From Bacteroidota bacterium (GTDB lineage Bacteria > Bacteroidota > Bacteroidia > AKYH767-A > OLB10), in the NCBI GenBank assembly GCA_029547265.1, contig JAKPPP010000178.1:8168-72167 (forward strand): a DNA stretch of 64,000 bases, given 5' to 3'. Shown one piece after another: positions 10,527 through 36,106 of the stretch. Positions within the stretch are counted from its first letter, which is position 1. Each line of letters starts with the position of its first letter. The notes below the pieces were generated by a model. It searched no databases, was not told where the DNA came from, and saw nothing but the letters and a program-made list of their open reading frames with translations. Both the position numbers and the translations under genes were made by a program.

Positions 10527-10600
10527 TCCTTCTTAGCTCAGCTGGTTAGAGCACATGACTGTTAATCATGGGGTCCCTGGTTCGAGCCCAGGAGAGGGAG
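10527..10600 (+). tRNA. tRNA-Asn: tRNA-Asn (anticodon GTT)
   Basis: Folded by hand. Acceptor stem tccttct/agaggga (one G-U pair). D arm gctc-agctggtta-gagc. Anticodon stem catga/tcatg with loop ctGTTaa. T arm cctgg-ttcgagc-ccagg. Discriminator G. No encoded CCA. Confidence 0.9.
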
Positions 10601-15444: not shown

Positions 15445-15462
15445 TTTTTTGAATTCAAAAAA
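15445..15462. promoter_or_regulatory. perfect 18-bp palindrome TTTTTTGAATTCAAAAAA upstream of the XRE-hsdM operon (candidate operator)
   Basis: Read directly from the sequence, 32 nt upstream of the XRE start codon at 15494. Confidence 0.4.
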
Positions 15463-15493
15463 AGACGTATTTTGTCCTGTCAAAATTATTCAG

Positions 15494-15799
15494 ATGAAAA
15501 GAGTTGGAGAAACATTGCGAGAGCTGCGAAATAGGAGACATCTTCTTATTCGTGAAGTAGCTGCCTCTGTTAATATGGATCAAACGCTATTGTCGAAGAT
15601 TGAAAGGGATGAGAGACTTCCGACTGTAGAGCAAGTGAAATCACTATCAAAGTTTTATAAGACAGACGGAAATGATATTCTACTCGCTTATCTAAGTGAT
15701 AAGGTGTTGATGGAGCTTAAAGACCAACCTCTCGCATTACAGGCAATTCAAATTGCCGAAGAAAAAATTCAGAAATCACAAGTAAATAAAAAGAAATAA
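15494..15799 (+). CDS. XRE-family HTH regulator translationally coupled to hsdM (controller-like)
   Basis: LRELRNRRHLLIREVAASVNMDQTLLSKIERDERLPTVEQV. Its stop overlaps the hsdM start as TAATG (15797-15801). Confidence 0.8.
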   Translation: MKRVGETLRELRNRRHLLIREVAASVNMDQTLLSKIERDERLPTVEQVKSLSKFYKTDGNDILLAYLSDKVLMELKDQPLALQAIQIAEEKIQKSQVNKKK

Positions 15800-18264: not shown

Positions 18265-19529
18265 TAGAGAAAAGTTATAAGCAAACCGAAGTTGGATTAA
18301 TCCCAACAGATTGGGTGGTGTTTAGCTTTGGTGAAATTGTCGATTACACCAAGGGTTATGCATTTAAATCAAACGATTATAAAGATAATGGAATCCGGAT
18401 AATTCGAGTAAGTGATACTACGTATGATTCAGTTAAGAAAGAGAACGGTATATATTTGGAAGAGAAATTTGCTAAACAATTTAACAATTGGAAACTTGAC
18501 GAAGGCGACCTAATATTTTCAACCGTTGGTTCTAAACCGCCAATGTATGATTCAATGGTTGGAAAAGTAATAATGGTCTCCAAGGAGTTTGAAGGATGTT
18601 TATTAAATCAGAATGCTGTTCTAATAAGATCCAAAAAGCGCAAAAAGGAAATTCAGGCACTTTTGTTAAGCCATTTCCGGACGAAAAGGTATTTGCAATA
18701 CATAGAACTTATTTTTAGAGGTAACGCTAATCAAGCGAGTATCACATTAAAAGACTTATTTGAATTTAAAATCCCACTTCCTAAGAGTGACTCCGAACAA
18801 ACAGCCATTGCCACCGCCCTAAGCAATATAGATTCGCTGATCAGTAATTTGGAGAAGTTGATTGAGAAGAAGAGGATGATTAAGCAGGGAGTTATGCAGG
18901 AGTTGTTGAAGCCGACAGTGGATTGGGTCACTTATGATTTATATGAGTCATGTGAACTTATTACGAAAGGCACAACCCCAACTTCAATTGGTCAAGAGTT
19001 TAAAAATGGGGGAATAAATTTCATAAAAATAGAATCACTTACTTCGAAAGGTGAAATTGTCCCCGATAAAGTTGCATATATTGATAATCTTACTCATAAG
19101 ATATTAAACCGATCCCAACTCAAAGTCGGGGATCTTCTTTTTTCAATTGCAGGTGCTTTAGGTAGGGTTGCTTTGGTGAATGAAAGCATATTACCAGCAA
19201 ATACTAATCAAGCTCTTGCTATTATACGACTTAAGGATGATTCAAAAATAAATGGTGATTTCTTGTTCTACTATTTAAACAGCCGTAAAATCCAAAACCA
19301 TATTTTGGGAATTAGTGTACAAGGTGCGCAAGCGAACTTGTCTTTACAAAACATTTCTGACTTTAAAATTAACTGCCCAAAGATAAAAGAAGAACAATTT
19401 AATATAGCTAAAACTTTGCGATCTCTGGATGATGAACTTACATTATTGGAAAATCAACAATCTAAGTACAACCAAATTAAGCAAGGAATGATGCAATCAT
19501 TATTAACAGGTAAAATTAGGTTGATTTGA
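18255..19529 (+). CDS. hsdS: Type I restriction-modification specificity subunit
   Basis: Two target-recognition halves, each followed by a conserved helix (...EQTAIATALSNIDSLISNLEKLIEKKRMIKQGVMQELL and ...EQFNIAKTLRSLDDELTLLENQQSKYNQIKQGMMQSLLTGKIRL). Overlaps hsdM by 10 nt. Confidence 0.9.
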   Translation: MAVVEKSYKQTEVGLIPTDWVVFSFGEIVDYTKGYAFKSNDYKDNGIRIIRVSDTTYDSVKKENGIYLEEKFAKQFNNWKLDEGDLIFSTVGSKPPMYDSMVGKVIMVSKEFEGCLLNQNAVLIRSKKRKKEIQALLLSHFRTKRYLQYIELIFRGNANQASITLKDLFEFKIPLPKSDSEQTAIATALSNIDSLISNLEKLIEKKRMIKQGVMQELLKPTVDWVTYDLYESCELITKGTTPTSIGQEFKNGGINFIKIESLTSKGEIVPDKVAYIDNLTHKILNRSQLKVGDLLFSIAGALGRVALVNESILPANTNQALAIIRLKDDSKINGDFLFYYLNSRKIQNHILGISVQGAQANLSLQNISDFKINCPKIKEEQFNIAKTLRSLDDELTLLENQQSKYNQIKQGMMQSLLTGKIRLI

Positions 19530-19573
19530 ACCCCTTTTAGTGAGTAATTTATCATACATTAATTAAACAAAGA

Positions 19574-19876
19574 ATGGAATCAATACCTTTAAAAGATCTG
19601 CTTTATATTCTTTCAAGTGTTGTAGCAGTCGTAATAACTTTTTACACGACCAAACACAACCTAAAGGATTTCATGCGAGACAAAATGGACGAGTGTAACA
19701 ATAAGGTAAATGCAAATAAAGACCTTATTGCAAAACAGAATGTTGAGTTGGAAAGGTTGAAAACGAGCTTAGAGTATCAGAAGCAAATACTGGATCAATT
19801 TCAAAAGCAAATTGTACCACATCTTCCAGACATTTTCATGTTAATTGGTGAAAGGAGGAACAATGGAAACAAATAA
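19574..19876 (+). CDS. small membrane-anchored coiled-coil protein (unknown function)
   Basis: 100 aa. N-terminal hydrophobic helix LLYILSSVVAVVITFY, then a heptad-like region (NKDLIAKQNVELERLKTSLEYQKQILDQFQKQI). Confidence 0.55.
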   Translation: MESIPLKDLLYILSSVVAVVITFYTTKHNLKDFMRDKMDECNNKVNANKDLIAKQNVELERLKTSLEYQKQILDQFQKQIVPHLPDIFMLIGERRNNGNK

Positions 19877-20111
19877 CAATTTAGATTTTAACAGGTTATT
19901 TGAACTAAACCAAAAAGTTCAAAATAAGTTGGCATCAAAGCCAGAAGCCGATGAGTATATGCTATTGCTTTTGAAAAACAACTCTATTTCTAAAAAACAG
20001 TACGAGGACTATATAGCTGGTCGAAATAAAGAAGAGCTGTTCGATACGGCTGTTACTATAGGAGGTATTGTACTGCTTGGTTATTTGCTTGGCAAAATAT
20101 TTTCGAAATAG
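19863..20111 (+). CDS. small tail-anchored membrane protein (unknown function)
   Basis: 82 aa from METNNNL. Preceded by aaaggaggaacaATG. Overlaps the previous gene by 14 nt. C-terminal hydrophobic helix AVTIGGIVLLGYLLGKIF. Confidence 0.5.
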   Translation: METNNNLDFNRLFELNQKVQNKLASKPEADEYMLLLLKNNSISKKQYEDYIAGRNKEELFDTAVTIGGIVLLGYLLGKIFSK

Positions 20112-20166
20112 TTGGCACAAAAGATATATGAACGGGATACTACTATAACTTTTATTAGAAACACAA

Positions 20167-20910
20167 ATGGAACCATACATAAATGCCTTCATTGAAATAT
20201 TGAGATTCGGTTTGCCAAGTGTCTTATTGCCTCTTTTAATAATTAGATGGAACAATCAACACAATATAAAGCTAAAAGAACTCGAACAAAAATTGGAAGT
20301 GGAAAAACTTTCTACTTCGAAATCTATTGAAAAAACCTTTGTGGTTGATAATGAAAAGCGCATACACGAAAAGGATGTTTACGCCTGCCTCTTAAAAACA
20401 TTATTCGAAATACAAAAATTGCATATTGAACTTTCGGGAAATTGTGTAGACTTTAAATGTATTGATTCTGCGGTAATGAAATTCAAAGCATCTTTAACAA
20501 AGTATCAGGAGATCATCGCTGACAATCAAATTTATTTATCTGCTGAAGCAACGAATTACTTATACGGTTTCTATCAACTTACTGGTGAATTACTCATTGA
20601 ACTAAAAGAAATTCAGGATAAAAAGAAATATCACTTGGCTAATGCTTGCGTTTATTTGAAATCACAATTTTTAGCAATGAAAACATTGCAAGTAAGGCAC
20701 GGTTTCAATCAGGATTCACAGGAGCAAATTGATGAAGAACTGTTTGAAAAGGAATATAGCAATTTTATTTCATGTTGTGGAAACGCTCCAGGAAGTTCCC
20801 TAATGGAAGAGTACTTTGATTTTTCGAGTGAATTTAAGACTGGAGGCAAACAGGAGATTGAAGAGGAGGAAGGAACAGTCACAGCAGAAAGAACTATTCC
20901 TGAGAAATAA
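20167..20910 (+). CDS. hypothetical protein with an N-terminal hydrophobic segment and an acidic tail
   Basis: 247 aa. FGLPSVLLPLLIIRW near the N-terminus, a helical central region, and a C-terminal EIEEEEG tail. Ends 34 nt before hsdR. Confidence 0.6.
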   Translation: MEPYINAFIEILRFGLPSVLLPLLIIRWNNQHNIKLKELEQKLEVEKLSTSKSIEKTFVVDNEKRIHEKDVYACLLKTLFEIQKLHIELSGNCVDFKCIDSAVMKFKASLTKYQEIIADNQIYLSAEATNYLYGFYQLTGELLIELKEIQDKKKYHLANACVYLKSQFLAMKTLQVRHGFNQDSQEQIDEELFEKEYSNFISCCGNAPGSSLMEEYFDFSSEFKTGGKQEIEEEEGTVTAERTIPEK

Positions 20911-20944
20911 AGTACATAAGATATTTTTCGATAGAATAAATAGC

Positions 20945-23900
20945 ATGAGCAAAGTAGGCGAAATAGAACGCAAAACCCAGGATAGAATCGTAATGCTTTT
21001 AGCTAACGATTTGAAGTACGACTACCTGGGTAATTTTCAAGATAGAGAGGACAACTCTAATATTGAAGTAGAACTTCTGAAATCACATTTAACTGATCGT
21101 GGTTATTCCGAAGTTTTGATTAGTCGGGCTGTTGCTGAATTGATCAAGACTGCCGGAGATCAAAACAGGAGCCTTTACGATGTAAATAAGGATGTATATC
21201 AACTACTTCGTTATGGAGCAAAGCAAAAAGAAGAAGTTGGCAAACAAAAAGAAACGGTTCATTTCATAGATTGGGAGAAACCCAACAATAATACCTTTTC
21301 ATTTGCAGAGGAAGTTAGTATTAGAGGCGAAAACACAAAACGCCCTGATATTGTACTTTACATCAATGGGATTGCTATTGCTGTCTTGGAATTGAAGCGT
21401 AGTACGATTAGTGTGAGCGAAGGAATTCGTCAGAATATCGACAATCAGAAACGAACATTCATTCGTCCGTTTTTCACTACGATGCAATTAGTAATGGCGG
21501 GCAATGATACGGAGGGCTTACGTTACGGTTCGATTGAAACACCGGAGAAATATTACCTAATGTGGAAGGAAGAATACCCTTCAGAAAACTTATTGGACAA
21601 GCATATTCATTGCGTTTGCCGTAAGGAAAGAATTTTGGAACTGCTGCATGATTTCGTAGTCTTCGATAGAGGGATAAAGAAATTATCGAGGGTGAATCAG
21701 TATTTCGGAGTGAAGGCTGCACAAGATTTCTTAAAGAGAAGAGAAGGCGGTGTTATTTGGCATACGCAAGGTTCAGGTAAAAGTCTTGTGATGGTTTGGC
21801 TGACAAAATGGATTCGTGAGAATATTAACGGCTCCCGTGTACTGATCATCACAGATAGAGATGAACTTGATAAGCAGATTGAGAAAGTCTTTAAAGGAGT
21901 AAACGAAGAAATCATTCGAACTAAGTCAGGAGCCGATCTCATTGAAAAATTGAATTTAGCATCTCCGTGGTTGATGTGTTCCTTAATTCATAAATTCGGG
22001 AATAAAGAAGAGCCCGATTACGATGAATACATCGAAGATCTAAAAAAGAGCCTTCCAAAGGATTTCAAAGCGAAGGGTGATATTTATGTATTGGTAGATG
22101 AATGCCACCGGACACAAAGCGGAAAACTTCACAAGGCAATGAAAATGATATTGCCTAATTCCGTGTTTGTTGGATTTACCGGAACTCCACTCTTGAAGGC
22201 TGATAAGGAAACCAGTTTAGAAGTATTTGGCAGGTATATACACACCTATAAGTTCGATGAAGCAGTAAAAGATAAAGTTGTTCTTGACTTGTTATATGAA
22301 GCCCGTGATATTGATCAATATATCACTTCTCAAAGTAAAATTGACCAGTGGTTCGACTCAAAAACAAAAGGACTTAACGAATACCAACGAACTGAATTGA
22401 AAAAACGATGGGGAACGATGCAAAAAGTGTTGAGTTCTAAGTCTCGTCTTGAACAAATTGTCAAGGACATTGTATTCGACATGAGTACCAAACCACGTTT
22501 GATGAGTGGTCGTGGAAATGCAATGTTGGTGAGTGGAAGCATTTATCAAGCGTGTAAATTCTACGAACTTTTTCAGCATACAGACTTAGCTGGTAAATGT
22601 GCAATAGTTACAAGTTATAACCCATCGGTAAGCGATATTAAAGGAGAAGCAAGTTCCGACAATGCCATTACCGAAAAATTAAAGCAATACGAGATCTACA
22701 ATCAAATGTTGAACGGTAAAACTGCCGAAGCGTTTGAAGAAGAAGCAAAGACCAAGTTCATTGATGAGCCAGCACAATTAAAATTGTTGATAGTTGTAGA
22801 TAAATTATTGACCGGCTTTGATGCACCGAGTGCAACATACTTGTATATCGACAAGAGTATGCAAGATCACGGATTATTCCAAGCAATTTGTCGAGTGAAC
22901 AGATTGGATGGAGATGACAAAGAGTATGGTTATGTGATAGACTATAAAGACTTGTTTGATAGCTTGAAAAAATCCATTCAGGATTACACTTCAGAAGCAT
23001 TTGACGGATATAACGAAGAAGATGTAAAAGGTCTTTTGACTGATAGGCTTACCAAGAGTCGTGAACACTTGGAAGAAGTATTGGAAGGGTTACGTGCATT
23101 AATTGAACCAGTGGAAATGCCAAAAGGGCAAATCCAATACATACGTTACTTCTGCGGAGATCCCGAAAAGAGTACTGATTTAAAGGAGAATGAACCGAAG
23201 CGTGTTACATTGTATAAACAAACATCTTCACTCATTCGAGCTTATGCTGCATTAGCGAATGAAATGGAAGATGCCGGTTACACATACTGTGAATCAGAAT
23301 CAATCAAGAGCGAAGTTGACTTCTTTGTTAAATTGAGGGATGAAATAAAAAATGCAAGCGGGGAAAAGATTGATTTAAAAGCATACGAACCCGACATGCG
23401 TTACTTGATCGACTCGTACATTAAAGCAGATGAGAGCGAGAAATTATCTGAGATGGATGACCTTTCTTTAATTCAACTGATTGTTGAGCGAGGAATGGAT
23501 GAAGCCGAAAAGAGTTTGCCAAATTCCATCCGTAAAAGTAAAGAAGCGATGGCGGAAACCATTGAGAATAATATTCGAAGACTCATCATTGACGAAACAC
23601 CAACCAACCCCAAGTACTTTGAAAAAATGAGTGTTCTACTTGAAGAATTGGTTAAAGAACGTAAGAGGGCGAAGATTGAATACTTAGAATACCTCCGAAA
23701 GATTGTTGAGCTAAGTAAGAACGTTAAAAAACCTGAATCAAGCGGACAGTACCCTCCTACAGTAAATTCAAGAGGAAAGCGAGCAATTTACGATAACGTT
23801 AACAAGGATGAAAAGTTAACAGTAGCACTTGACCAAGAAATACTTTATACACGAAAAGATAGTTGGAGAGGGAATAAAGCCAAAGAGAAGGAGATAAGAA

Positions 23901-23980
23901 TAGCAATCCGCAAACATGTGCAGGACGATGAACTTGTTGATGCTATATTCGACATTATCAAGCAACAACCGGAGTATTAA
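20945..23980 (+). CDS. hsdR: Type I restriction endonuclease subunit R
   Basis: N-terminal PD-(D/E)xK (RPDIVLYINGIAIAVLELKR). SF2 helicase motifs HTQGSGKS, DECHRTQSG, GFTGTP and QAICRVNR. Start set at MSKVGEIERK (20945). Confidence 0.9.
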   Translation: MSKVGEIERKTQDRIVMLLANDLKYDYLGNFQDREDNSNIEVELLKSHLTDRGYSEVLISRAVAELIKTAGDQNRSLYDVNKDVYQLLRYGAKQKEEVGKQKETVHFIDWEKPNNNTFSFAEEVSIRGENTKRPDIVLYINGIAIAVLELKRSTISVSEGIRQNIDNQKRTFIRPFFTTMQLVMAGNDTEGLRYGSIETPEKYYLMWKEEYPSENLLDKHIHCVCRKERILELLHDFVVFDRGIKKLSRVNQYFGVKAAQDFLKRREGGVIWHTQGSGKSLVMVWLTKWIRENINGSRVLIITDRDELDKQIEKVFKGVNEEIIRTKSGADLIEKLNLASPWLMCSLIHKFGNKEEPDYDEYIEDLKKSLPKDFKAKGDIYVLVDECHRTQSGKLHKAMKMILPNSVFVGFTGTPLLKADKETSLEVFGRYIHTYKFDEAVKDKVVLDLLYEARDIDQYITSQSKIDQWFDSKTKGLNEYQRTELKKRWGTMQKVLSSKSRLEQIVKDIVFDMSTKPRLMSGRGNAMLVSGSIYQACKFYELFQHTDLAGKCAIVTSYNPSVSDIKGEASSDNAITEKLKQYEIYNQMLNGKTAEAFEEEAKTKFIDEPAQLKLLIVVDKLLTGFDAPSATYLYIDKSMQDHGLFQAICRVNRLDGDDKEYGYVIDYKDLFDSLKKSIQDYTSEAFDGYNEEDVKGLLTDRLTKSREHLEEVLEGLRALIEPVEMPKGQIQYIRYFCGDPEKSTDLKENEPKRVTLYKQTSSLIRAYAALANEMEDAGYTYCESESIKSEVDFFVKLRDEIKNASGEKIDLKAYEPDMRYLIDSYIKADESEKLSEMDDLSLIQLIVERGMDEAEKSLPNSIRKSKEAMAETIENNIRRLIIDETPTNPKYFEKMSVLLEELVKERKRAKIEYLEYLRKIVELSKNVKKPESSGQYPPTVNSRGKRAIYDNVNKDEKLTVALDQEILYTRKDSWRGNKAKEKEIRIAIRKHVQDDELVDAIFDIIKQQPEY

Positions 23981-23983
23981 TCG

Positions 23984-24697
23984 ATGAAGCAAATTCAGAT
24001 AAGCAATATAACAATTGATGTCGTAAAAAAAGACATCAAGAACATCCACTTGGCGGTCTATCCACCGACAGGTCGTGTTCGTATTGCTACTCCATTGCAT
24101 ACTACTGATGATTCCATTCGCTTGTTTGCTATTTCAAAATTGGGTTGGATAAAACGCCAACAGCGAAATTTTGAAAAACAAAAAAGACTTCCTTCAAAGG
24201 AGTACGTTAACCGTGAAAGCCATTTCTACTTGGGCAAGCGGTATTTGTTAAATGTAATTGAATCAATAGACAAGCCTAAAATTATTGTTCGGCATAGTAG
24301 AATTGACCTTTATGTTCGTCCCGGAACATCTATTGAACAAAAAAACGAACTTCTTTCTGATTGGTATCGCAATCAACTGAAAGACCATATCTCACCATTG
24401 ATTACGAAATGGGAAAAGATCTTGAAAGTAAAAGTTCAGCATTGGGGTATTCGTAAAATGAAAACAAAGTGGGGAAGTTGTACAATCGAAACACAACGAA
24501 TACTTCTCAACCTCGAATTGATTAAAAAGCCTGTAGCTTGTTTGGAGTACATAATTGCCCACGAATTGGTACACTTGCTCGAACGGCATCATAATGATCG
24601 CTTTCTTTCCATTCTTAGCAAGCATCTTCCAAATTGGAAACATTTAAAGGAAGAATTGAATCGTTTTCCACTTGATCATTCGGATTGGGAGTATTAA
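23984..24697 (+). CDS. DUF45/YgjP-like (M48/SprT-like) zinc metallopeptidase
   Basis: HExxH motif in IIAHELVHLLERHHN. Starts 3 nt after the hsdR stop. Confidence 0.85.
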   Translation: MKQIQISNITIDVVKKDIKNIHLAVYPPTGRVRIATPLHTTDDSIRLFAISKLGWIKRQQRNFEKQKRLPSKEYVNRESHFYLGKRYLLNVIESIDKPKIIVRHSRIDLYVRPGTSIEQKNELLSDWYRNQLKDHISPLITKWEKILKVKVQHWGIRKMKTKWGSCTIETQRILLNLELIKKPVACLEYIIAHELVHLLERHHNDRFLSILSKHLPNWKHLKEELNRFPLDHSDWEY

Positions 24698-28130: not shown

Positions 28131-28850
28131 TTAAGGGCGTCCTGACCCGACTTTTCCATTCATGTAATCAGTTATTCGTTTCTGTAACGAATAATTTTCC
28201 TGCCAATGCATTTTTACCAACCAAAACAAATCGCCAGATTCTTTCATTTTAATCGAAAACCGTGAAAATCCCTGGTGCTTGTTCAAATCTCGTTCGAATA
28301 TGAGTTCATCCTTATTGTCAAAACGATAGTATGCAACATTAACCAAAGTATTCTTCGAAATTTGAACAAATCTATTGGAAATGGGGTCAATCATTTTCTT
28401 GATTTCATCATAATTGAGCTCGTTGCTATTTAGTTCATATTGGCGGTATACTTCACGAGATTGCCCGGCAGGAGAAATAATATCTTCCCGTAGTATAAAT
28501 GCCTTCTTGCGCCCCTTAATTGGTGTATAAACGCAAATTAAGTCCCTCGGATCAACACTTACCTCTTTACTGAACTTCCCATCTTTTAATTTGAAAGTAA
28601 CCGTACCAGGTTCGTAAAAAGCTCGTCTGTCTTGAAGGATAGATTGAAAGGCAGTGTAAATATGTAATTCAAAGTTATGTCTAAGATTATAAAGATCACT
28701 TTTCAATTGGTCGTTCTGTAAAGACAGCTCGTTGTTATTTTGTTTTAACCTTGCAAGTTCTGCTTCTACTTCTTTCATTTTTTCAATTCTTTTTTGTGGC
28801 TTATCGGTTTGCAGCTTGGCGTTCGGTTTGCCGAGCAAGATTTGCATCAA
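28131..28850 (-). CDS. coiled-coil protein with a C-terminal LytTR-like DNA-binding domain (no receiver domain)
   Basis: N-terminal coiled coil EVEAELARLKQNNNELSLQNDQLKSDLYNL. C-terminal pattern ...DLICVYTPIKGRKKAFIL...LNYDEIKKMI...FVQISKNTLVNVAYY resembles the LytTR consensus (F-x-R-x-H-R-S-x-x-V-N). Confidence 0.6.
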   Translation of the reverse strand: MMQILLGKPNAKLQTDKPQKRIEKMKEVEAELARLKQNNNELSLQNDQLKSDLYNLRHNFELHIYTAFQSILQDRRAFYEPGTVTFKLKDGKFSKEVSVDPRDLICVYTPIKGRKKAFILREDIISPAGQSREVYRQYELNSNELNYDEIKKMIDPISNRFVQISKNTLVNVAYYRFDNKDELIFERDLNKHQGFSRFSIKMKESGDLFWLVKMHWQENYSLQKRITDYMNGKVGSGRP

Positions 28851-28942
28851 AGTAAAGAGTAGGCGAGTAATTGTTAGATGGCAAACTGACGCAAAGCTAT
28901 GCTGTTACCTGCTGGCGCTTTTCCGTGAATATTTTCTTTCTT

Positions 28943-29503
28943 TTACTCGTCAATTCCAAAACAAGATACAATTGTCCTTTTCTGGTCTTTACTATTAGGA
29001 TTTGATACTACTATTCCATATTCTCCAGCTTTAAGGGTTCTAAGAATTATGAGGTAAGACGATGTTCCATATTTTTTGCCGCTAAATAGAATCATATCAT
29101 TAGAGTTAGTGCGACTTTTCATTAGGGTGCCGGAATTATCTTCGCTCAGCACCACCGACCTGGTATTCTTCTTGGCTTTGAATTTATATATTGTAATGAT
29201 TGTTAAAGGATCTGAGTTATTATCTACGGCACGAACTACTAATTGTAATTTTTCACTTGTAGAAAATCTTGTTTGTGCCTTTCCTCCAGCTATTTCAAGG
29301 GAAAGTGCATTCCATGAGTTTGATGACCAAGAAACACCCGAAGTATAATTGCCGAACTCTTTATCTAAATCAACATGAGAACTGTCAGCTTTTAATAAAT
29401 AAGTGTCGCCTACAAATTCGGGGTCTTTATTTTGTCCGTGCGTTGGTAAAACACTAAATAAAATTGATGTTAAAATAAAAATTGAGATTTTAATTATTTT
29501 CAT
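28943..29503 (-). CDS. secreted hypothetical protein
   Basis: Signal peptide MKIIKISIFILTSILFSVLPTHGQ. Beta-rich composition. 4-nt gap from the upstream gene. Confidence 0.6.
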   Translation of the reverse strand: MKIIKISIFILTSILFSVLPTHGQNKDPEFVGDTYLLKADSSHVDLDKEFGNYTSGVSWSSNSWNALSLEIAGGKAQTRFSTSEKLQLVVRAVDNNSDPLTIITIYKFKAKKNTRSVVLSEDNSGTLMKSRTNSNDMILFSGKKYGTSSYLIILRTLKAGEYGIVVSNPNSKDQKRTIVSCFGIDE

Positions 29504-29507
29504 GGTT

Positions 29508-30242
29508 CTATTTTTTTATAAAGTTAATTGTTCCAAATGGATGTTGAATAAAGTGAATACGATTAATTTTTGGTGCGGTTACCAAGTCAAAAAGAAATTG
29601 ATTTAATTCTGTCATTATAAACTCTATTGTACTCCACAAATCAAATTTAATTGGTTTGAACTTTTCAAAAGTAAAAATCTGAGACTTGTAAGTTACGGTC
29701 ATGTCGTCTTTAGTATGGAATCCTCCATTGTGATTTGAATTACGGATAGTTTGAAATATCTTAATCAAATTTTTATAGTCAGAATTAATAGCAGCATAAT
29801 CAATTAGATAGTCCCTTATTCTCCAAAAGTCTTCTAATGCGTCAGGAAATTTTGAATTTGGAATAGCTTTAACAATACTCCTTAAAGAGTTTTCAAAATG
29901 AGTAAAACTTAGAATAATGTAATTTGTGCTTAAGTCTACTCCATAAGAGTAAATTCTTGCTTCAGCATAACTTTCTAATTCTGTCGAAGGTAAAGAAAAA
30001 TTTTTGTTGTTTTTCCACCACTCCTTTTTTGTGAGATAATCTTTCAGAAAAACACTCGAAAGGAGTGAACTATTTGCAACTTCTCTAAGGGTTGTGAACA
30101 CTACAATTCGAGAGTCGTTCGTAATGTCGAGTACTGAATTATTTGTTTTGACTTTTTCAATTGAAGTCGAAAAATCATTGGTGATTTTAAAAAAGAAGTC
30201 TGTTATTTCTTCGGGCTTTTGTTTGGTTAAATAATTGTCCAT
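29508..30242 (-). CDS. hypothetical cytoplasmic protein (244 aa)
   Basis: Long ORF with no family recognised. Contains IRNSNHNGGFH; see noticed_but_rejected for the HEPN idea. Confidence 0.6.
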   Translation of the reverse strand: MDNYLTKQKPEEITDFFFKITNDFSTSIEKVKTNNSVLDITNDSRIVVFTTLREVANSSLLSSVFLKDYLTKKEWWKNNKNFSLPSTELESYAEARIYSYGVDLSTNYIILSFTHFENSLRSIVKAIPNSKFPDALEDFWRIRDYLIDYAAINSDYKNLIKIFQTIRNSNHNGGFHTKDDMTVTYKSQIFTFEKFKPIKFDLWSTIEFIMTELNQFLFDLVTAPKINRIHFIQHPFGTINFIKK

Positions 30243-30403
30243 TTATCAAATCTTATTTTTAGTATCTGCCTAAGGCGTGCATGTAACTTATTTACATGCG
30301 TTATAATAATATATTAATTACTTGTTCATTTTGTAAAAGTATCATTGAATATTGAAGTCTAATTGTCATATAGCTGATTTGCCTGGACTACCAAATTGTC
30401 ATG

Positions 30404-32098
30404 TCAAGCGCTATGTTCTTGTCTTGATGAGTCGTTTTTATAGCCTGCAAACTTTGGAAAAATCATTTTGTTTCTATTTTTAATGTCTAAACGATTTATT
30501 GTCACTCCAACCGGACGTGGAAAAATTGCTCCAGCTGAATTAATATTACAAACATCAAAAATACAATATGGAGTTCTATCAATCCCTGAACATAAACTTT
30601 CGAGATCTGACACATGAAAGACTGTCAGATTGAATATTGTAAGATTTCCCAAAGGTTTACCCTTTAAGTATTCCCGTAGTTTATCATTTAGTATTCCAAT
30701 TAAATATGGATTCATGGCAATTTTCTCATTAACGACTAAAATCGGGAATACATTTATTTTTTCCTTATGTTCAAGATTTACCTTAAACAAATCGGGTCTG
30801 TCTCTTAAATTAATTATACCACTTCCTAACTGGCTTATTCCGAAACTTTTATAAAACACTTCTGGATTCGACCGATATAATGAAAATTCTGTACTTTGTT
30901 TCTGGTCTGTGTAAACCCCTGAACTTTTAAACTCAAAAAGACAAACGTTGTTATCCTTCAACAATAATCCGTCCGCTAATTCAATCTGCCCCTTTGAAGT
31001 TTCCATAATTAATTCCTTCCCTGACTTAATTATGTATTCAGGATTATTAATGTAACTTCCGTGAAGTATTTTAAAACAATACTCTTCAAAAAACTTCCCA
31101 ATAACACCTCGGTACTCTGCAATTTTCCATTTTCTCTTCATATGATCAAACCAAAAATCATTGATAAAGGTTTCATATAATTTTTCAGCAAGAAGAAGGC
31201 TGTCAAGCAGTAAATAGCATCCTTTGCCATTGTCAAAGTAAACCGGGGATTTTTTCAATTCTGAAATTTCCAACGTAAGAGACGATGTGACAAGATCTCT
31301 CCGACTTAGAAAGTTGAATATTGATTCCGATATCTTCCGCTCTTCTCCCGTTTCTGGTAATTGATACAAATACATGTACTCATCAGAAATATTTTGGGCT
31401 AAATTATTTATATAGATTCCTGATATGTGAAGAATTAATTGCTCTGGAGTAAATCCGATTGAATCGAAATAAACCTGTATCTCATTTCTCAATATTTGAT
31501 CCTGACGGAACCAGCTAATTAATTCAACATATCGATCAAAAATTTGAAACGGATTAGTTACAACCATTAACTCATTTAAAAAGACTGATGCCGAGGTTAA
31601 CCTTTCTATTCCTGTTAGATTATTCGCCTCCTCACTTTTTTTGTATTCTGCAAGGACTGAATTAACGCAGGAATAATATTTCAAAATACAAGCAAACTCG
31701 TCTTGTCCCAAATGATCTTTGGTAACAGTTGTGGGATTATAATTGCTTATTATTTCCTGAATAGCAAATAAGGTAGCAGAACGATTAAACAATATAGGCA
31801 TTCCTCTGTCTCTTAGATCAACAACTGCATGATCATACGCCTTTATATAAGGTTTCTTTGTGCAATCATTGGATCCTGATAAATGATGTAACATTTGCAT
31901 TTGAAAAGGCTCATCATATTTGATCAATACACTAAGAGGTGGTAATTGGCGTAAATTTAATGATGCTAATTCATGAAGTATTGCATCTTTGTCAATACCT
32001 TCTAATAGCGAAATTCTACCGCTCTGATCTGGAGGATTCTCACCGAAAATTTCCTTGTGTCCAAGAATTAAAAGTGTACCAGGAATTTCAACATTCAT
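30404..32098 (-). CDS. 564-aa protein with a predicted PD-(D/E)xK nuclease core
   Basis: Motif order E338/E339 (GKFFEEYCFKIL) ... D376 (IELADGLLL) ... E389-x-K391 (VCLFEFKSSG), checked against the DNA at 30926-30973. The N-terminal 330 aa or so and the C-terminal 170 aa or so are unrecognised. Confidence 0.6.
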   Translation of the reverse strand: MNVEIPGTLLILGHKEIFGENPPDQSGRISLLEGIDKDAILHELASLNLRQLPPLSVLIKYDEPFQMQMLHHLSGSNDCTKKPYIKAYDHAVVDLRDRGMPILFNRSATLFAIQEIISNYNPTTVTKDHLGQDEFACILKYYSCVNSVLAEYKKSEEANNLTGIERLTSASVFLNELMVVTNPFQIFDRYVELISWFRQDQILRNEIQVYFDSIGFTPEQLILHISGIYINNLAQNISDEYMYLYQLPETGEERKISESIFNFLSRRDLVTSSLTLEISELKKSPVYFDNGKGCYLLLDSLLLAEKLYETFINDFWFDHMKRKWKIAEYRGVIGKFFEEYCFKILHGSYINNPEYIIKSGKELIMETSKGQIELADGLLLKDNNVCLFEFKSSGVYTDQKQSTEFSLYRSNPEVFYKSFGISQLGSGIINLRDRPDLFKVNLEHKEKINVFPILVVNEKIAMNPYLIGILNDKLREYLKGKPLGNLTIFNLTVFHVSDLESLCSGIDRTPYCIFDVCNINSAGAIFPRPVGVTINRLDIKNRNKMIFPKFAGYKNDSSRQEHSA

Positions 32099-32103
32099 TC
32101 TCG

Positions 32104-32334
32104 TTAATGTTTTTTATCTTTTGGAGGGTTTGAATCATGTCCATAGGAATCTTTATCTCGAATTATTCCATTGGAGCGGTGTATCACAACTTCAGATTTC
32201 TGATTGATTGCGATATCCCTTGCAATTTTAATAGCTTCAGCCTGTGTTGGGACAATTGCAGTGGCTCTTTCATTTCCTGCTCCTTTAACTGCCCAGTCTT
32301 TACCTTTCGGAACTACGTGTTGATTCTTTTTCAT
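32104..32334 (-). CDS. DUF2188-family small protein
   Basis: 76 aa. HVVPKGKDWAVKGAGNERATAIVPTQAEAIKIARDIAINQKSEVVIHRSNGIIRDKDSYGHDSNPPKD matches the DUF2188 pattern as I remember it. Confidence 0.75.
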   Translation of the reverse strand: MKKNQHVVPKGKDWAVKGAGNERATAIVPTQAEAIKIARDIAINQKSEVVIHRSNGIIRDKDSYGHDSNPPKDKKH

Positions 32335-32345
32335 TTCTAATTGTT

Positions 32346-32975
32346 TTATAAGTTAGGAATTGATGTTATCACAATACCTTGTAATTGAAAATCCTGTGTG
32401 AGAATGATTGGCTGGTGAATTGCATTTGTTGATCGTGGTAGAAGTATCACCATCTCATTTGTCTTTTGTAACTCTTTAATCGTTGCTGAATCATCAATTA
32501 ATGCCACAACCAAATCTCCATTAGTTGCGGTGTTTTGTTGTTTGATTAATACAAGATCCCCGTCATTAATACCTCGCTGATTCATCGAATCGCCTTTCGC
32601 TCGTAGAAAGAAATACTTGTTTGGTGCCTTAGCAAGTTTCACTGAAACCGGAATATAGGCTCGTATATTTTCTTCAGCGAAGATTGGTGTTCCACAAGCA
32701 ACTTCTCCAACAAGCGGAACGCCCACCGTTTCTGCTCTTTCGGAATCTTCAGTATCAACATCAATGAATTTTAAACTACCATCGGAAGCTCGTTGTAAAA
32801 CGCCTTTTGTTGCCAACTTTTCAAGTACTTCAGCAGCAGACCGTGGGGATTTGTACCCCATCTCAGACATAAGTTCACGAACAGTTGGTAATTCGCCTTC
32901 ATTCATGATGTAATTCCGGATTATGCGTACAGCGTTCTTTTCACGACTATTAAGCTCTTCTTTTTTAGAAACCAT
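32346..32975 (-). CDS. LexA-like repressor (winged-HTH plus S24 self-cleaving peptidase)
   Basis: N-terminal LexA_DNA_bind-like segment ELPTVRELMSEMGYKSPRSAAEVLEKLATKGVLQR. S24 nucleophile in AKGDSMN. General-base Lys in SATIKEL. Start at MVSKKEE (32975). Confidence 0.85.
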   Translation of the reverse strand: MVSKKEELNSREKNAVRIIRNYIMNEGELPTVRELMSEMGYKSPRSAAEVLEKLATKGVLQRASDGSLKFIDVDTEDSERAETVGVPLVGEVACGTPIFAEENIRAYIPVSVKLAKAPNKYFFLRAKGDSMNQRGINDGDLVLIKQQNTATNGDLVVALIDDSATIKELQKTNEMVILLPRSTNAIHQPIILTQDFQLQGIVITSIPNL

Positions 32976-33004
32976 ACACAAACATACAAAAACTATACAA
33001 GTTT

Positions 33005-33042
33005 TACAAAAAAACACCCAAACTGCTGATCTTATGGGTGTT
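33005..33042 (-). terminator. rho-independent terminator after abiEii
   Basis: Arms acaccca (33014-33020) and tgggtgt (33035-33041). Followed on the minus strand by T7 (33007-33013). Confidence 0.6.
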
Positions 33043-33067: not shown

Positions 33068-34114
33068 CTACGATTTGGACTCGGCATCTCCTGTATATAA
33101 CATTTCCCCTTTTTCCCTGAATCTCTTCTTTAGTGTTTCAAGACGGGCAATAATTTCAGGAAAACTTAATGTATTTTCATCATTCCTAAACATGTTTTCA
33201 GCCAAGTCAGCGTAATCCTCTTCCCAAGAGCCTCTTAGTTCAATTGGTGGGATGAAATCTATAGTTTGATGAGAGTGCGTACCGTAATCAACATTCTTTA
33301 CTTTAGTAAATTTGGCTCTAAATTTTACAATTGAATCATAAAGTGAAGTGTTTTCAATTGCTTCTCGACCAAATTCAGTATCCATGATCTTTTCAATATC
33401 ACTTAGATGTCTCGATCTAAATCGTCCATCTTTTGTTGATCCTGCTACAAACAATTCATGGAGAAGAAATATTTTTTCCAAGAATGTTTTTTGAGGATGA
33501 GCGCATACTACTTCAAAATTGGGATCCGTAAAGGAGGTATTCGGGAATTCGTCACCGATAAATGATCTAATTTGACGAACTTCATGTGGATTTAGCATTG
33601 AACGCACCATTACTTCGATTTTCACTTCAGGTTTAAAGTACTCGTTCGGCTCTGTCAAAGATTTGTACTTCACTAATAAAACATGCGGATCAGTTCCTTC
33701 TTCTTCAGTTTCGACAACCTCAATCGCAAATAGTTCGTCTGGAATTCCAATTCCATTTAACGCTTCTTTTAACTCATTTAATAGCGTTGTACTAACAAAT
33801 TGCTTAGATGCAGCACGCATCTTGGTAATTCCATTTCCGGAAATTTCATCATCATTTTTAGTAATTCCCAAAGCTGCTCTATCAAGTGCTAAATCAATGT
33901 CTTCTGAAAATCTTTGTATGAGACCCCATCCTTTGCTTAACGATGTTCCTCCTTTAAATACTAAGTAATTTGCCGATCTTGTAGTAAATAGTGCTCTCAA
34001 GGTTTGGGTTACCCACCAATCCTTTTCAACAGCTTGAGACAAGACTCCCATTTTTGCTGCCGTTTCATTTATTATATCTAGTCGCCTGCCTTCTTCGATT
34101 TTTAAAAATTCCAT
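33068..34114 (-). CDS. abiEii: AbiEii/AbiGii-family nucleotidyltransferase toxin (DUF1814)
   Basis: Signature VFKGGTSLSKGWGLIQRFSEDIDL. 348 aa. Overlaps the upstream antitoxin-like gene by 13 nt. Confidence 0.85.
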   Translation of the reverse strand: MEFLKIEEGRRLDIINETAAKMGVLSQAVEKDWWVTQTLRALFTTRSANYLVFKGGTSLSKGWGLIQRFSEDIDLALDRAALGITKNDDEISGNGITKMRAASKQFVSTTLLNELKEALNGIGIPDELFAIEVVETEEEGTDPHVLLVKYKSLTEPNEYFKPEVKIEVMVRSMLNPHEVRQIRSFIGDEFPNTSFTDPNFEVVCAHPQKTFLEKIFLLHELFVAGSTKDGRFRSRHLSDIEKIMDTEFGREAIENTSLYDSIVKFRAKFTKVKNVDYGTHSHQTIDFIPPIELRGSWEEDYADLAENMFRNDENTLSFPEIIARLETLKKRFREKGEMLYTGDAESKS

Positions 34115-34746
34115 CCTTCTAATTGATTTTTTTCGTTAGTAATATTTTTTAAAAAACTCCCTATCCAACCCGGAGCCTTTCTTCTATCGTTTTCAAATTT
34201 TTTCTCGTCTTCTTCCATTAGAACAATCTTCAATTTTTTGATTATTTTTTCATTGGTTAGATTAGATTCGCCAAGCTCCCTAAGGGCAAGAATTACTAAT
34301 TTGCTTATTTCTCCTTCTAAGGAAAGTAATTTGGGGCTTGCGCTTTTAAACTTAATCGTTCTGTTTCCGATATGTATTTCCCTTGGAGAGCCATCAGTAA
34401 GATAGACCGCCTTCATAGGAATTTGTGTAGTTAGTCCGAGTAGATACATCGCCATTATTCCAGTAGGTTCTATTTTGGCGTTATCTCTTCGAGCAATTGC
34501 TTTAGCAACAATTTCTATAGGAGGAGTAAGTGCTCCTATTTCTGGATCTTTCTTAGGCTTATCATAAATACCTTGTGCAATCCTTCTAATGACTCCTTCT
34601 TTTGCAAGTCTTGAAAGAGTTGTCTTAACTGCATCAATTCCTCCCAAATCATTAAAGTCTGAAGGCACAAAGATTTCTCCATCCTTTTTTGATAGGATTC
34701 TTTCTTCAATTTCCTTACTAATAGATCTTTTAACAATCGTTTCCAT
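34102..34746 (-). CDS. abiEi: AbiEi-like antitoxin / transcriptional regulator
   Basis: N-terminal winged-helix-like segment TTLSRLAKEGVIRRIAQGIYDKPK. Positioned and overlapping as expected for the type IV TA partner of AbiEii. Confidence 0.7.
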   Translation of the reverse strand: METIVKRSISKEIEERILSKKDGEIFVPSDFNDLGGIDAVKTTLSRLAKEGVIRRIAQGIYDKPKKDPEIGALTPPIEIVAKAIARRDNAKIEPTGIMAMYLLGLTTQIPMKAVYLTDGSPREIHIGNRTIKFKSASPKLLSLEGEISKLVILALRELGESNLTNEKIIKKLKIVLMEEDEKKFENDRRKAPGWIGSFLKNITNEKNQLEGWNF

Positions 34747-35219: not shown

Positions 35220-35250
35220 AGGCTACCTTAATTAGGTAGCCTTTTTGCTT
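35220..35250 (+). terminator. orphan rho-independent terminator-like hairpin
   Basis: aggctacct-taatt-aggtagcct followed by ttttt. No convincing plus-strand ORF upstream. Confidence 0.45.
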
Positions 35251-35271
35251 TTTATGGATATTCCTTCTGCA

Positions 35272-35559
35272 ATGAATTTCGCTGTATACATCTTGTATTC
35301 TCAAAAACTTAATCGTTTTTATGTCGGTACTTCTGATGACCCTAATAGACGCGTTATTGAACATAATTCAGGAAAATATGATGATGCTTTTACTAAAAAT
35401 GGCGTCCCTTGGTCATTGTTTTTAGTCATTAGTGATCTAACCAGTGAACAAGCTTATAAAATTGAAAGGCACATCAAAAAAATGAAATCAAAAAAGTTCA
35501 TAGAAAATTTAGTGCAATTTCCTGAAATTATTGATAAGCTTAAAAAGAAATATTTATAG
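35272..35559 (+). CDS. GIY-YIG nuclease-domain protein (single domain, about 95 aa)
   Basis: FAVYILYSQKLNRFYVGTSDDPNRRVIEHNSG contains the GIY...YVG...R..EHN pattern. Start set at MNFAVY. The last base of its TAG stop is the first base of the tRNA-derived repeat. Confidence 0.8.
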   Translation: MNFAVYILYSQKLNRFYVGTSDDPNRRVIEHNSGKYDDAFTKNGVPWSLFLVISDLTSEQAYKIERHIKKMKSKKFIENLVQFPEIIDKLKKKYL

Positions 35560-35601
35560 TCCCTGGTCGACCCCGATAGCTATCGGGGCAGGAGAGGGAG
35601 C
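35559..35601 (+). repeat. attR-like degenerate copy of the tRNA-Asn 3' end, with an 18-bp perfect palindrome in place of the T-loop
   Basis: gtccctggt-cga-c-cc[cgatagctatcgggg]caggagagggagc. 27 of the 29 tRNA positions are retained, with a 15-nt insertion. Palindrome ccccgatagctatcgggg at 35571-35588. Confidence 0.6.
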
Positions 35602-35663
35602 GGTGAAGCGTGAATCGAGCAACGCGAGATTCTCTACTGCAGGGCGGGATATAAATCAAACAA

Positions 35664-35697
35664 AAAACCCTGAAGCTTGCTTCGGGGTTTTTTGTTT
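35664..35697 (+). terminator. rho-independent terminator (likely the native tRNA-Asn terminator displaced by the island)
   Basis: aaccctgaag-cttg-cttcggggtt followed by ttttgtttt, 65 nt after the repeat. Confidence 0.65.
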
Positions 35698-35740
35698 TAA
35701 GAAAAGCCTTCATTTTTTATTGAGGCATGAACTATTTTAT

Positions 35741-36106
35741 ATGGAACATCCAAAATATGGCGTATACGTGTTATACAGCTTGAAAGACCAACTATTTTAT
35801 ATTGGATACACGACAGATTTTGTTCGGAGAATGAAAGAACATGCTGAGGGGAACTCAGCAAGCACCGCACCTCGCCGACCATTCATCCCTTTACTATGCG
35901 AATATTATTTTAGCAAAGCAGATGCAATGCGGCGCGAGCAGTACTTTAAAACGACGCCCGGTAAACGCGTTTTAAGGTTCATGTTAGAGAATAGTTTGAA
36001 AGAGGTAAAGTTTCATTTATCCCCTGAAAAAATGATTTATACATCTATGCTCGTTAAAAAATATTCAAACTGCGTAAGGCGATTTTTAAAATTAATGCGG
36101 AAATAA
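35741..36106 (+). CDS. GIY-YIG nuclease-domain protein (second copy)
   Basis: YGVYVLYSLKDQLFYIGYTTDFVRRMKEHAEG. Start set at MEHPKYG (35741). The track's upstream extension crosses the repeat and the terminator. Confidence 0.8.
   Translation: MEHPKYGVYVLYSLKDQLFYIGYTTDFVRRMKEHAEGNSASTAPRRPFIPLLCEYYFSKADAMRREQYFKTTPGKRVLRFMLENSLKEVKFHLSPEKMIYTSMLVKKYSNCVRRFLKLMRK

Follow-up and report, generated by a model that had tools for sequence, protein, structure and literature searches.

How costly or suicidal immune systems stay quiet until they are needed is an open question in phage defence, and to our knowledge few dedicated defence regulators are known (CapW, CapH/CapP and BrxR). A stretch of 64,000 nucleotides (nt) from a Bacteroidota bacterium (GenBank assembly GCA_029547265.1, contig JAKPPP010000178.1; hereafter the window, with L-numbers labelling the loci to which it was compared) raises this question in concrete form. 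Three minus-strand genes, encoding a LexA-like repressor, a DUF2188 protein and a 564-amino-acid (aa) putative nuclease, follow one another there with gaps of 11 nt (lexA to DUF2188) and 5 nt (DUF2188 to the 564-aa gene), which asks whether the nuclease is wired to a damage-sensing repressor and how such an arrangement arose. We consider it fairly probable, from sequence comparison, that this is a composite locus in which a mobile, self-contained cassette (hairpin, TGTAT promoter, lexA and DUF2188) has been placed between abiEii and a stand-alone nuclease gene, with damage-inducible control as the predicted outcome. The features on which this reading depends are as follows, with ORF denoting open reading frame.

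34102-34746, minus strand: abiEi (DUF6088), forming with abiEii a type IV toxin-antitoxin/abortive-infection pair
33068-34114, minus strand: abiEii, directly upstream of the lexA cassette
33008-33042, minus strand: terminator-like hairpin between abiEii and lexA, with an 8-bp stem (AACACCCA/UGGGUGUU), a 14-nt loop and a U7 run
32104-33010, minus strand: portable cassette, comprising operator/promoter, lexA and DUF2188
32974-32999, minus strand: putative LexA operator of three direct TGTAT repeats, overlapping the promoter
32346-32975, minus strand: lexA-like gene, 209 aa, ATG start
32104-32334, minus strand: DUF2188 gene, 76 aa
30404-32098, minus strand: nuclease-family gene, 564-aa ORF

The LexA repressor and its predicted operator

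By its sequence the lexA product is a canonical LexA, with a winged helix and an S24 peptidase, for which self-cleavage is predicted. It matches PF01726 (the N-terminal winged-helix DNA-binding domain; 46.8 bits against a cut-off of 23.7), PF00717 (S24 peptidase; 102 bits) and NCBIfam model TIGR00498 (166.7 bits against a curated cut-off of 110.95), and it aligns end to end with E. coli LexA, its best solved relative (E=3e-31). In that alignment C94-G95, S130 and K167 stand in register with A84-G85, S119 and K156 of the E. coli protein; the cleavage-site motif is VACG here and VAAG there, the serine lies in G(M/D)SM and the lysine in T(V/I)K. Ser130 (GDSM), Lys167 and Cys94-Gly95 are invariant among 39 members of the LexA clade to which the protein belongs. 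We prefer the ATG start over a longer GTG-initiated ORF reaching 33017 because homologues are 207-209 aa long. A sequence-only reading of the window had described three co-directional genes with these gaps, a LexA-type repressor with an intact Ser/Lys dyad and a 76-aa DUF2188 protein, and all three descriptions hold, through the ORF coordinates, the domain matches and catalytic residues just given, and a PF09954 match at 6.6e-24, respectively.

Upstream of lexA, the TGTAT repeats occupy 32999-32995, 32988-32984 and 32978-32974, spaced 11 and 10 nt apart, such that the last overlaps the ATG and a Bacteroidota-type -7 box, TAnnTTTG (TATGTTTG, 32986-32979), is embedded within the putative operator. 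The TGTAT half-site resembles the E. coli half-site CTGTAT. The same arrangement, TGTAT-N6-TGTAT-N5-TGTATG before the ATG, recurs in the window, L064, L066, L069 and L274, and across 84 loci of the LexA clade TGTAT/ATACA half-sites average 2.85 per 48 nt upstream of lexA versus 0.105 in control windows (27-fold), with at least two present in 80 of the 84. Half-sites overlap recognisable TTGACA and TATAAT boxes in the non-Bacteroidota loci and embed TAnnTTTG in the Bacteroidota loci; the final half-site abuts the ATG in both groups, and the mRNA would therefore be leaderless or near-leaderless. Conserved repeats in this position are what LexA autoregulation would be expected to leave, and binding of LexA to them is predicted on this computational basis. 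The hairpin that precedes the operator folds at -12.4 kcal/mol (z -2.8), and 2 of 200 shuffled sequences fold equally well; a simple terminator scan missed it, its loop being longer than the 8 nt that the scan allows. The combined sigma-70 promoter and terminator scan performed no better than on shuffled sequences, as expected given Bacteroidota promoters. A search of the 64-kb window for a second operator found none, the sole other TGTAT-N5-7-TGTAT match being coding sequence. That pair, at 35283-35298, was rejected as an operator since it encodes the conserved VYILYS of a GIY-YIG protein.

From these elements we propose that LexA dimers would bind the TGTAT repeats, which cover the promoter and start codon, and would thereby repress lexA, DUF2188 and the nuclease gene together. 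The three genes would share a single transcript because gaps of 11 and 5 nt are too short to hold promoters. RecA bound to single-stranded DNA (ssDNA), arising from damage or phage replication, would, from what is known of the family, stimulate self-cleavage at Cys94-Gly95 via Ser130/Lys167, which would lift repression and raise the level of the nuclease. The nuclease in turn would be a DNA endonuclease that attacks invading or damaged DNA, a one-gene effector of the restriction-like or abortive-infection type, while DUF2188 may act on the regulator side, possibly as a co-regulator.

Boundaries, spread and cargo of the cassette

Comparison with related loci indicates that 32104-33010 is a discrete, self-contained cassette inserted between abiEii and a stand-alone nuclease gene. 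The window and L066, a locus carrying a cyclic-oligonucleotide-based anti-phage signalling system (CBASS), share DNA homology from 33010 to 32104 (69% over 914 bp) that starts about 10 nt upstream of the operator and stops exactly at the DUF2188 stop codon, and homology with L064 begins at the first TGTAT repeat. The segment 32099-33106 is absent from the sister islands L007/L008, whose nuclease gene is 86% identical to that of the window in nucleotides, and the hairpin belongs to this missing DNA. In the closest sister islands (L007/L008 and L001-3) the gene order is AbiEi-AbiEii-nuclease, with no LexA or DUF2188 between.

The LexA clade itself is 51-88% identical to the window protein and reaches across many phyla, in keeping with horizontal spread, and it stands at the head of defence operons. 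Scanning GTDB genomes with the single LexA sequence returned only Bacillota LexA proteins of 37-38% identity; it was an alignment of the clade that found the clade, retrieving at least 577 hits. The best 80 of these, used for identity and taxonomy, are 51-65% identical to the window LexA and include about 35 from Bacteroidota along with Nitrospirota, Omnitrophota, Planctomycetota, Elusimicrobiota, proteobacteria, Candidate Phyla Radiation (CPR) groups and one Methanobacterium metagenome-assembled genome (MAG). Two clade copies occur within one MAG (L080 and L092). Viral contigs gave one LexA-clade match and zero nuclease matches, and therefore neither gene would typically be phage-borne. Among the closer relatives, L064 (LexA 87% identical) has a type II CBASS behind lexA and lies in a comparable AbiE/GIY-YIG island, L066-68 (69%) carry LexA-DUF2188 with the same 11-nt gap followed by a type II CBASS, and L069 (65%) heads a Cap15-type CBASS. 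The cargo behind lexA at the 84 clade loci was distributed as follows.

DNA methyltransferases or type IIG-like genes: about 26 of 84 loci
CD-NTase/CBASS: 18 of 84
Y-family polymerase, DnaE2 or UmuD-like cassettes: 17 of 84
Caspase-like: 2 of 84
Pycsar cyclase: 1 of 84 (PycC, 1e-120)
Short prokaryotic Argonaute (pAgo): 1 of 84 (4e-198)
NACHT/STAND: 1 of 84
Large helicase: 1 of 84
Patatin: 1 of 84
Unclassified: 21 of 84

Three of the more distant loci, in the Methanobacterium MAG (L125) and in CPR MAGs (L120 and L139), combine a clade lexA with CD-NTase or methyltransferase cargo, reflecting either very wide horizontal transfer or mis-binning.

The DUF2188 protein accompanies the repressor in part of this clade. 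Besides its Pfam match it matches the PADLOC candidate PDC-S16 at 2.6e-34, a model whose defence role is only that of a candidate, and a search against PDB sequences gave no match. Of the 84 operons 15 include DUF2188; in 14 it immediately follows lexA, and in L133 it comes second. The identifiable cargo behind lexA-DUF2188 is defence-type throughout. The literature likewise places DUF2188 genes in CapH/CapP-linked operons and describes DUF2188 as accompanying CBASS/Thoeris islands. These distributions hint that DUF2188 may be an optional accessory of the regulator cassette rather than of the nuclease, and possibly a co-regulator. Five Nitrospirota loci (L075, L085, L087, L088 and L096) have a 57-59-aa ORF after lexA and before methyltransferase or type IIG-like genes; in L096 it starts 2 nt past the lexA stop, and in the other four it overlaps that stop by 4 nt. 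This ORF, predicted by simple ORF calling, could be a small partner analogous to DUF2188.

If the repressor travels in this way, is it also the SOS regulator of its host? Complete Bacteroidetes genomes are reported to have no LexA homologues (Sanchez-Osuna et al. 2021, PMC8565304), their SOS response being run by CI-like HTH-S24 (helix-turn-helix) proteins that bind GGA-N5-TCC or CTAA-N5-TTAG (PMC8565304), and neither motif occurs in the 92-nt region upstream of lexA. Those non-canonical repressors share with the window protein an S24 self-cleaving architecture, a Bacteroidota host and a link to DNA damage, but they carry a CI/XRE-type HTH, whereas the window protein carries the LexA winged helix of PF01726. 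The sequence-only reading had allowed that the gene might be the host's own LexA. Because of this literature, the spread across phyla, the presence of two copies in one MAG and the lack of a second operator in the 64 kb, the evidence, seen from within the window, supports the opposite view, namely that lexA is not the SOS regulator described for Bacteroidota. It also indicates that canonical LexA does occur in Bacteroidota, on mobile DNA, despite its reported absence from the phylum. Bacteroidales are reported to lack both non-canonical SOS regulators. In a series of Bacteroidales MAG loci (L081, L084, L086, L100, L101, L113, L129, L146 and others) a clade lexA with TGTAT operators heads Y-family polymerase/DnaE2 cassettes, and the clade LexA could be the missing SOS regulator there.

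Is the pairing of LexA and nuclease more than chance?

A cassette that moves between so many cargoes could have landed beside the nuclease by accident, having reached a recombination hot spot, perhaps after losing a CBASS cargo, with no selected wiring between the two. The window offers some grounds for such an incidental juxtaposition. Its closest LexA relative is the CBASS-heading one of L064, and the island is a mosaic in which AbiE is nearer to L001 and the nuclease nearer to L007. A second segment, 28851-30390, lies between the nuclease and a conserved 239-aa ORF and is absent from all sister islands, making it specific to the window. The L001-3 lineage, moreover, deleted lexA yet kept the nuclease. 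This last case can be read from its remnant: the final 33 codons of DUF2188 (residues 44-76) are fused there to abiEii (L001:6874-7995, and also in L002 and L003), and the stop-5 nt-ATG junction leads into a nuclease only 65% identical to that of the window. Remnant and shared junction together imply that DUF2188 formerly preceded the nuclease in this lineage and that a deletion removed lexA together with the 5' portion of DUF2188.

The same junction, however, counts against accident, as it is common to two lineages whose nucleases have diverged that far. A further argument comes from L274. A LexA of the same clade (82% identical, likewise preceded by the triple operator) is there independently paired with a highly diverged nuclease-family member, a 584-aa protein that begins 189 nt later, matches the family hidden Markov model (HMM) at 3.6e-37 and is 24% identical to the window nuclease, with a homologue of the window ORF 28131-28850 as the next gene. 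Among the other LexA-clade loci examined, no nuclease-family member was found. Whatever the history, gaps of 11 and 5 nt make read-through from the LexA promoter hard to avoid. On balance the link between LexA and nuclease is probably more than accident, with purely incidental juxtaposition an unlikely explanation, and a damage- or infection-inducible nuclease is plausible from the predicted operator and gene order.

Several observations nevertheless pull against the composite, damage-controlled locus that we favour. The sequence-only reading had raised the possibility of a conserved S24-DUF2188-nuclease triad, and the neighbourhood survey speaks against one: no LexA was found near the nuclease family in nine homologue contexts, 45 GTDB loci and 44 metagenome loci, and neither tblastn nor clade-built HMMs detected an intact DUF2188 in those contexts. 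With about 105 other family loci lacking LexA, the nuclease evidently does not need a LexA regulator. In L274 the 189-nt gap would accommodate a separate promoter, and in the window itself promoters inside lexA or DUF2188 are conceivable. LexA dimers normally bind inverted repeats, and an operator of direct repeats is unusual for them. The operons downstream of the clade lexA genes (84 loci) were delimited by simple in-house ORF calling and BLAST clustering before annotation with Pfam and PADLOC. Finally, the structural matches of the 564-aa protein are marginal, with a best Foldseek E-value of 1.8e-3 and TM-scores of at most 0.52.

A different kind of wiring would make the operon a DNA-repair module, in which an acquired LexA controls a limited SOS-like regulon and the nuclease, induced with it, serves as a damage-processing or repair enzyme. 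The 17 clade members that head Y-family polymerase/DnaE2 or UmuD-like/UmuC-like cassettes lend this some weight, as does one nuclease-family member, the 553-aa P0005 (within L009:3197-9662), which is separated by 78 nt from an imuB-like gene and dnaE2 upstream and is followed by phage-like genes. But L009 is the sole such case among the approximately 105 nuclease loci, and the neighbours of the family are mostly defence or mobile genes (AbiE, type I restriction-modification (R-M), nSTAND, AAA_15 and DUF4238) with no recurrent repair partner. DUF2188 itself accompanies defence-type cargo at 10 of 42 loci and translesion synthesis (TLS) cassettes at 0 of 17, a difference that is suggestive only (Fisher p=0.049), and the window holds no other operator. 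We therefore regard a repair module as improbable.

The 564-aa nuclease family

The 564-aa protein appears by its fold to belong to the PD-(D/E)xK superfamily; it could be assigned to no family within it, and its N-terminal region went unmatched. The protein had no match in Pfam, NCBIfam, PHROGs, PADLOC or PDB sequences, and the family profile had none in the PDB. A word-indexed search gave 13 relatives, while an exhaustive profile search gave 1,160 representatives at E<=1e-3 and 159 at E<=1e-30, mostly of about 550 aa and matched over their full length. When 82 diverse members were compared with Pfam and PADLOC, nothing significant emerged beyond one weak NERD and two weak CARF_PDDEXK matches. 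The layout predicted for the window protein consists of an all-helical N-terminal region of about 280 residues, a conserved FINDFWF helix (311-317) and a PD-(D/E)xK core at about 326-500, and two AlphaFold2 models (pLDDT 76 with pTM 0.77, and pLDDT 75.5) place a helix and then four strands carrying the motif. Foldseek searches with the whole model and with the C-terminal domain returned lists of mostly PD-(D/E)xK enzymes, including the R.BspD6I small subunit (probability 1.0, TM-score 0.51), BstEII, LmuA, SduA, Nt.BspD6I, the R2 endonuclease domain, MGME1, Hjc, RecU and McrC; the viral library gave the same picture. Structure prediction, which the sequence-only reading had named as the check on its nuclease assignment, thus places the C-terminal half in this fold class. 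A Can2 match had suggested a CARF or other sensor domain at the N terminus, and we rejected it because that region is all-helical and the TM-score is 0.19.

Conservation across the 82 homologues refines the motif. D376, K391, G334 and G420 are invariant, E338 is kept in 78, E373 in 81 and Q423 in 79. Of the motif that had been read from the sequence as E338/339-D376-E389-K391, E338, D376 and K391 stand, position 389 proves to be E in 45 members and Q in 36, and E339 is not conserved; E373 and Q423 belong to the conserved set and had been missed. The compared members are only 17-30% identical while these positions are kept, and invariant D376/K391 with near-invariant E338/E373 at such divergence is what selection on a catalytic site would be expected to produce. 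Some PD-(D/E)xK enzymes accept Q in place of the (D/E) residue. It is accordingly very improbable that the protein is an inactive DNA-binding or scaffold protein of PD-(D/E)xK-like fold with another role in the operon, despite the weak structural matches, the lack of any significant sequence match to a characterised nuclease and the Gln found at position 389.

Neighbourhoods indicate that the family is a stand-alone gene in variable, defence-rich surroundings, almost all of its loci being in Bacteroidota. The 141 genes flanking 45 family loci fall into 135 different Pfam families, none recurring more than three times, and they are often defence-type (nSTAND, DUF4238, R-M, AAA_15, YhcG and EndoU). 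A type II R-M system finds no support here, as N6_Mtase occurred twice among those 141 neighbours and no methyltransferase is adjacent in the window. Nor does the window operon contain the CD-NTase and effector of a CBASS, which are present behind related lexA genes. We also rejected AbiE and the nuclease as one functional system: beyond one island family their adjacency is seen only in L010 and, as an AbiEii fragment about 5.7 kb upstream, in L028, and it looks like island co-location.

Island context and comparison with known systems

The sequence-only reading had placed the operon beside AbiE on a mobile island, and the surroundings agree, with AbiEi/AbiEii directly upstream and a tRNA-Asn gene, recombinases and a type I R-M system on the same island. 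Further features of the window are listed here.

10527-10601: tRNA-Asn, abutting and overlapped by a large serine recombinase ORF
15449-24697: complete type I R-M system (HTH gene, hsdM, hsdS, 247-aa ORF, hsdR), with a YgjP-like metallopeptidase gene next to it
28943-29503: 186-aa ORF within the segment 28851-30390, with a signal peptide
29508-30242: 244-aa ORF within the same segment, with no family match
35560-35601: degenerate copy of the tRNA-Asn 3' end (TCCCTGGT...CAGGAGAGGGAGC), with 8 and 13 matching nt around a 21-nt insert

The tRNA-Asn gene, the recombinases and the degenerate copy bracket an island of about 25 kb that holds the type I R-M system, an integrase fragment, AbiE and the operon, and the tRNA-Asn gene and its copy about 25 kb away are plausible attL/attR sites. 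The 244-aa ORF was rejected as a fourth operon gene on account of its distance of 161 nt and because all sister islands lack both it and the 186-aa ORF. Tandem small GIY-YIG ORFs (35245-36106 in the window) flank the island family in every related locus (L001, L007, L064 and L274) and may mark an insertion hot spot or belong to the element. An Rfam scan of 27-37 kb found nothing. Several window proteins end in type IX secretion system (T9SS) sorting domains. The window DEAD-box helicase has a 92% identical counterpart in an uncultured Bacteroidetes MAG and its next relatives in Cytophagales, and the host is an uncultured member of the Bacteroidota.

Taken more broadly, and more tentatively than our reading of the locus itself, LexA with or without DUF2188 may represent a third class of plug-in damage-sensing immunity regulator beside CapW and CapH/CapP. 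Such a cassette would consist of an insulating terminator, a leaderless promoter with its own TGTAT operator and a RecA-cleavable repressor, would move between phyla, and would put CBASS, Pycsar, pAgo, R-M and nuclease genes under SOS-type control, with DUF2188 as a co-regulator specific to defence cargo and the 564-aa family (more than 1,000 clusters at 50% identity) as a new single-gene anti-phage nuclease. If this is true, a travelling LexA and its operator would make many defence systems answer directly to the RecA/ssDNA signal, and the cassette would supply a ready-made inducible unit for testing. The locus further draws attention to an unnamed nuclease family, large and found mostly in Bacteroidota, as a candidate for a role in defence. 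The literature searched describes neither canonical LexA cassettes at the head of defence operons nor this nuclease family, which is weak evidence of novelty as subscription papers were poorly covered.

Set beside known nucleases, the 564-aa protein resembles Shedu SduA, LmuA, R.BspD6I/BstEII and McrC in its C-terminal core of E...D...(E/Q)xK, its large non-catalytic N-terminal region and its location in a defence island. It differs in that it has no DUF4263 and no PADLOC, Pfam or PDB sequence match, and its similarity to them is confined to the core, at the low TM-scores given above. SduA in particular matches the core weakly (probability 0.33-0.57, TM-score 0.14-0.23), and neither DUF4263 nor the PADLOC Shedu model matched the window protein or the 82 family members, in keeping with the failure of the sequence-only reading to place the protein in Shedu. 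Compared with R-M and related enzymes, the family is without a conserved methyltransferase or ATPase partner.

On the regulator side, the window LexA has in common with canonical LexA (E. coli, PDB 1JHH/3JSO) its full-length architecture and an operator in its own promoter. It differs in that the gene lies on a defence island and belongs to a clade whose cargo is mostly defence systems, that the operators of the Bacteroidota clade examples are direct repeats adjoining the start codon, and that a genome-wide regulon is neither shown nor suggested. TLS polymerase cassettes stand behind some clade lexA genes, which recalls the LexA-headed mutagenesis cassettes (lexA-imuA-imuB-dnaE2). For CBASS, control by CapW and CapH/CapP in response to damage has been published (Lau et al. 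2022, bioRxiv 10.1101/2022.04.27.489752; Blankenchip et al. 2022, PMC9122588). These modules offer the closest parallel, being repressors beside a defence operon whose inactivation in response to DNA damage or ssDNA increases immune-gene expression, and being promiscuous across systems. The window regulator is distinct from CapH/CapP in lacking an adjacent metallopeptidase and in being a co-directional S24 LexA. It combines DNA binding and a self-cleaving S24 peptidase in one polypeptide, with neither a Zn-metallopeptidase nor a WYL domain, and it is the co-directional first gene of its operon, whereas CapH/CapP and CapW are divergent from theirs. The presumed signal would be the RecA filament rather than ssDNA bound directly by a peptidase, as in CapH/CapP.

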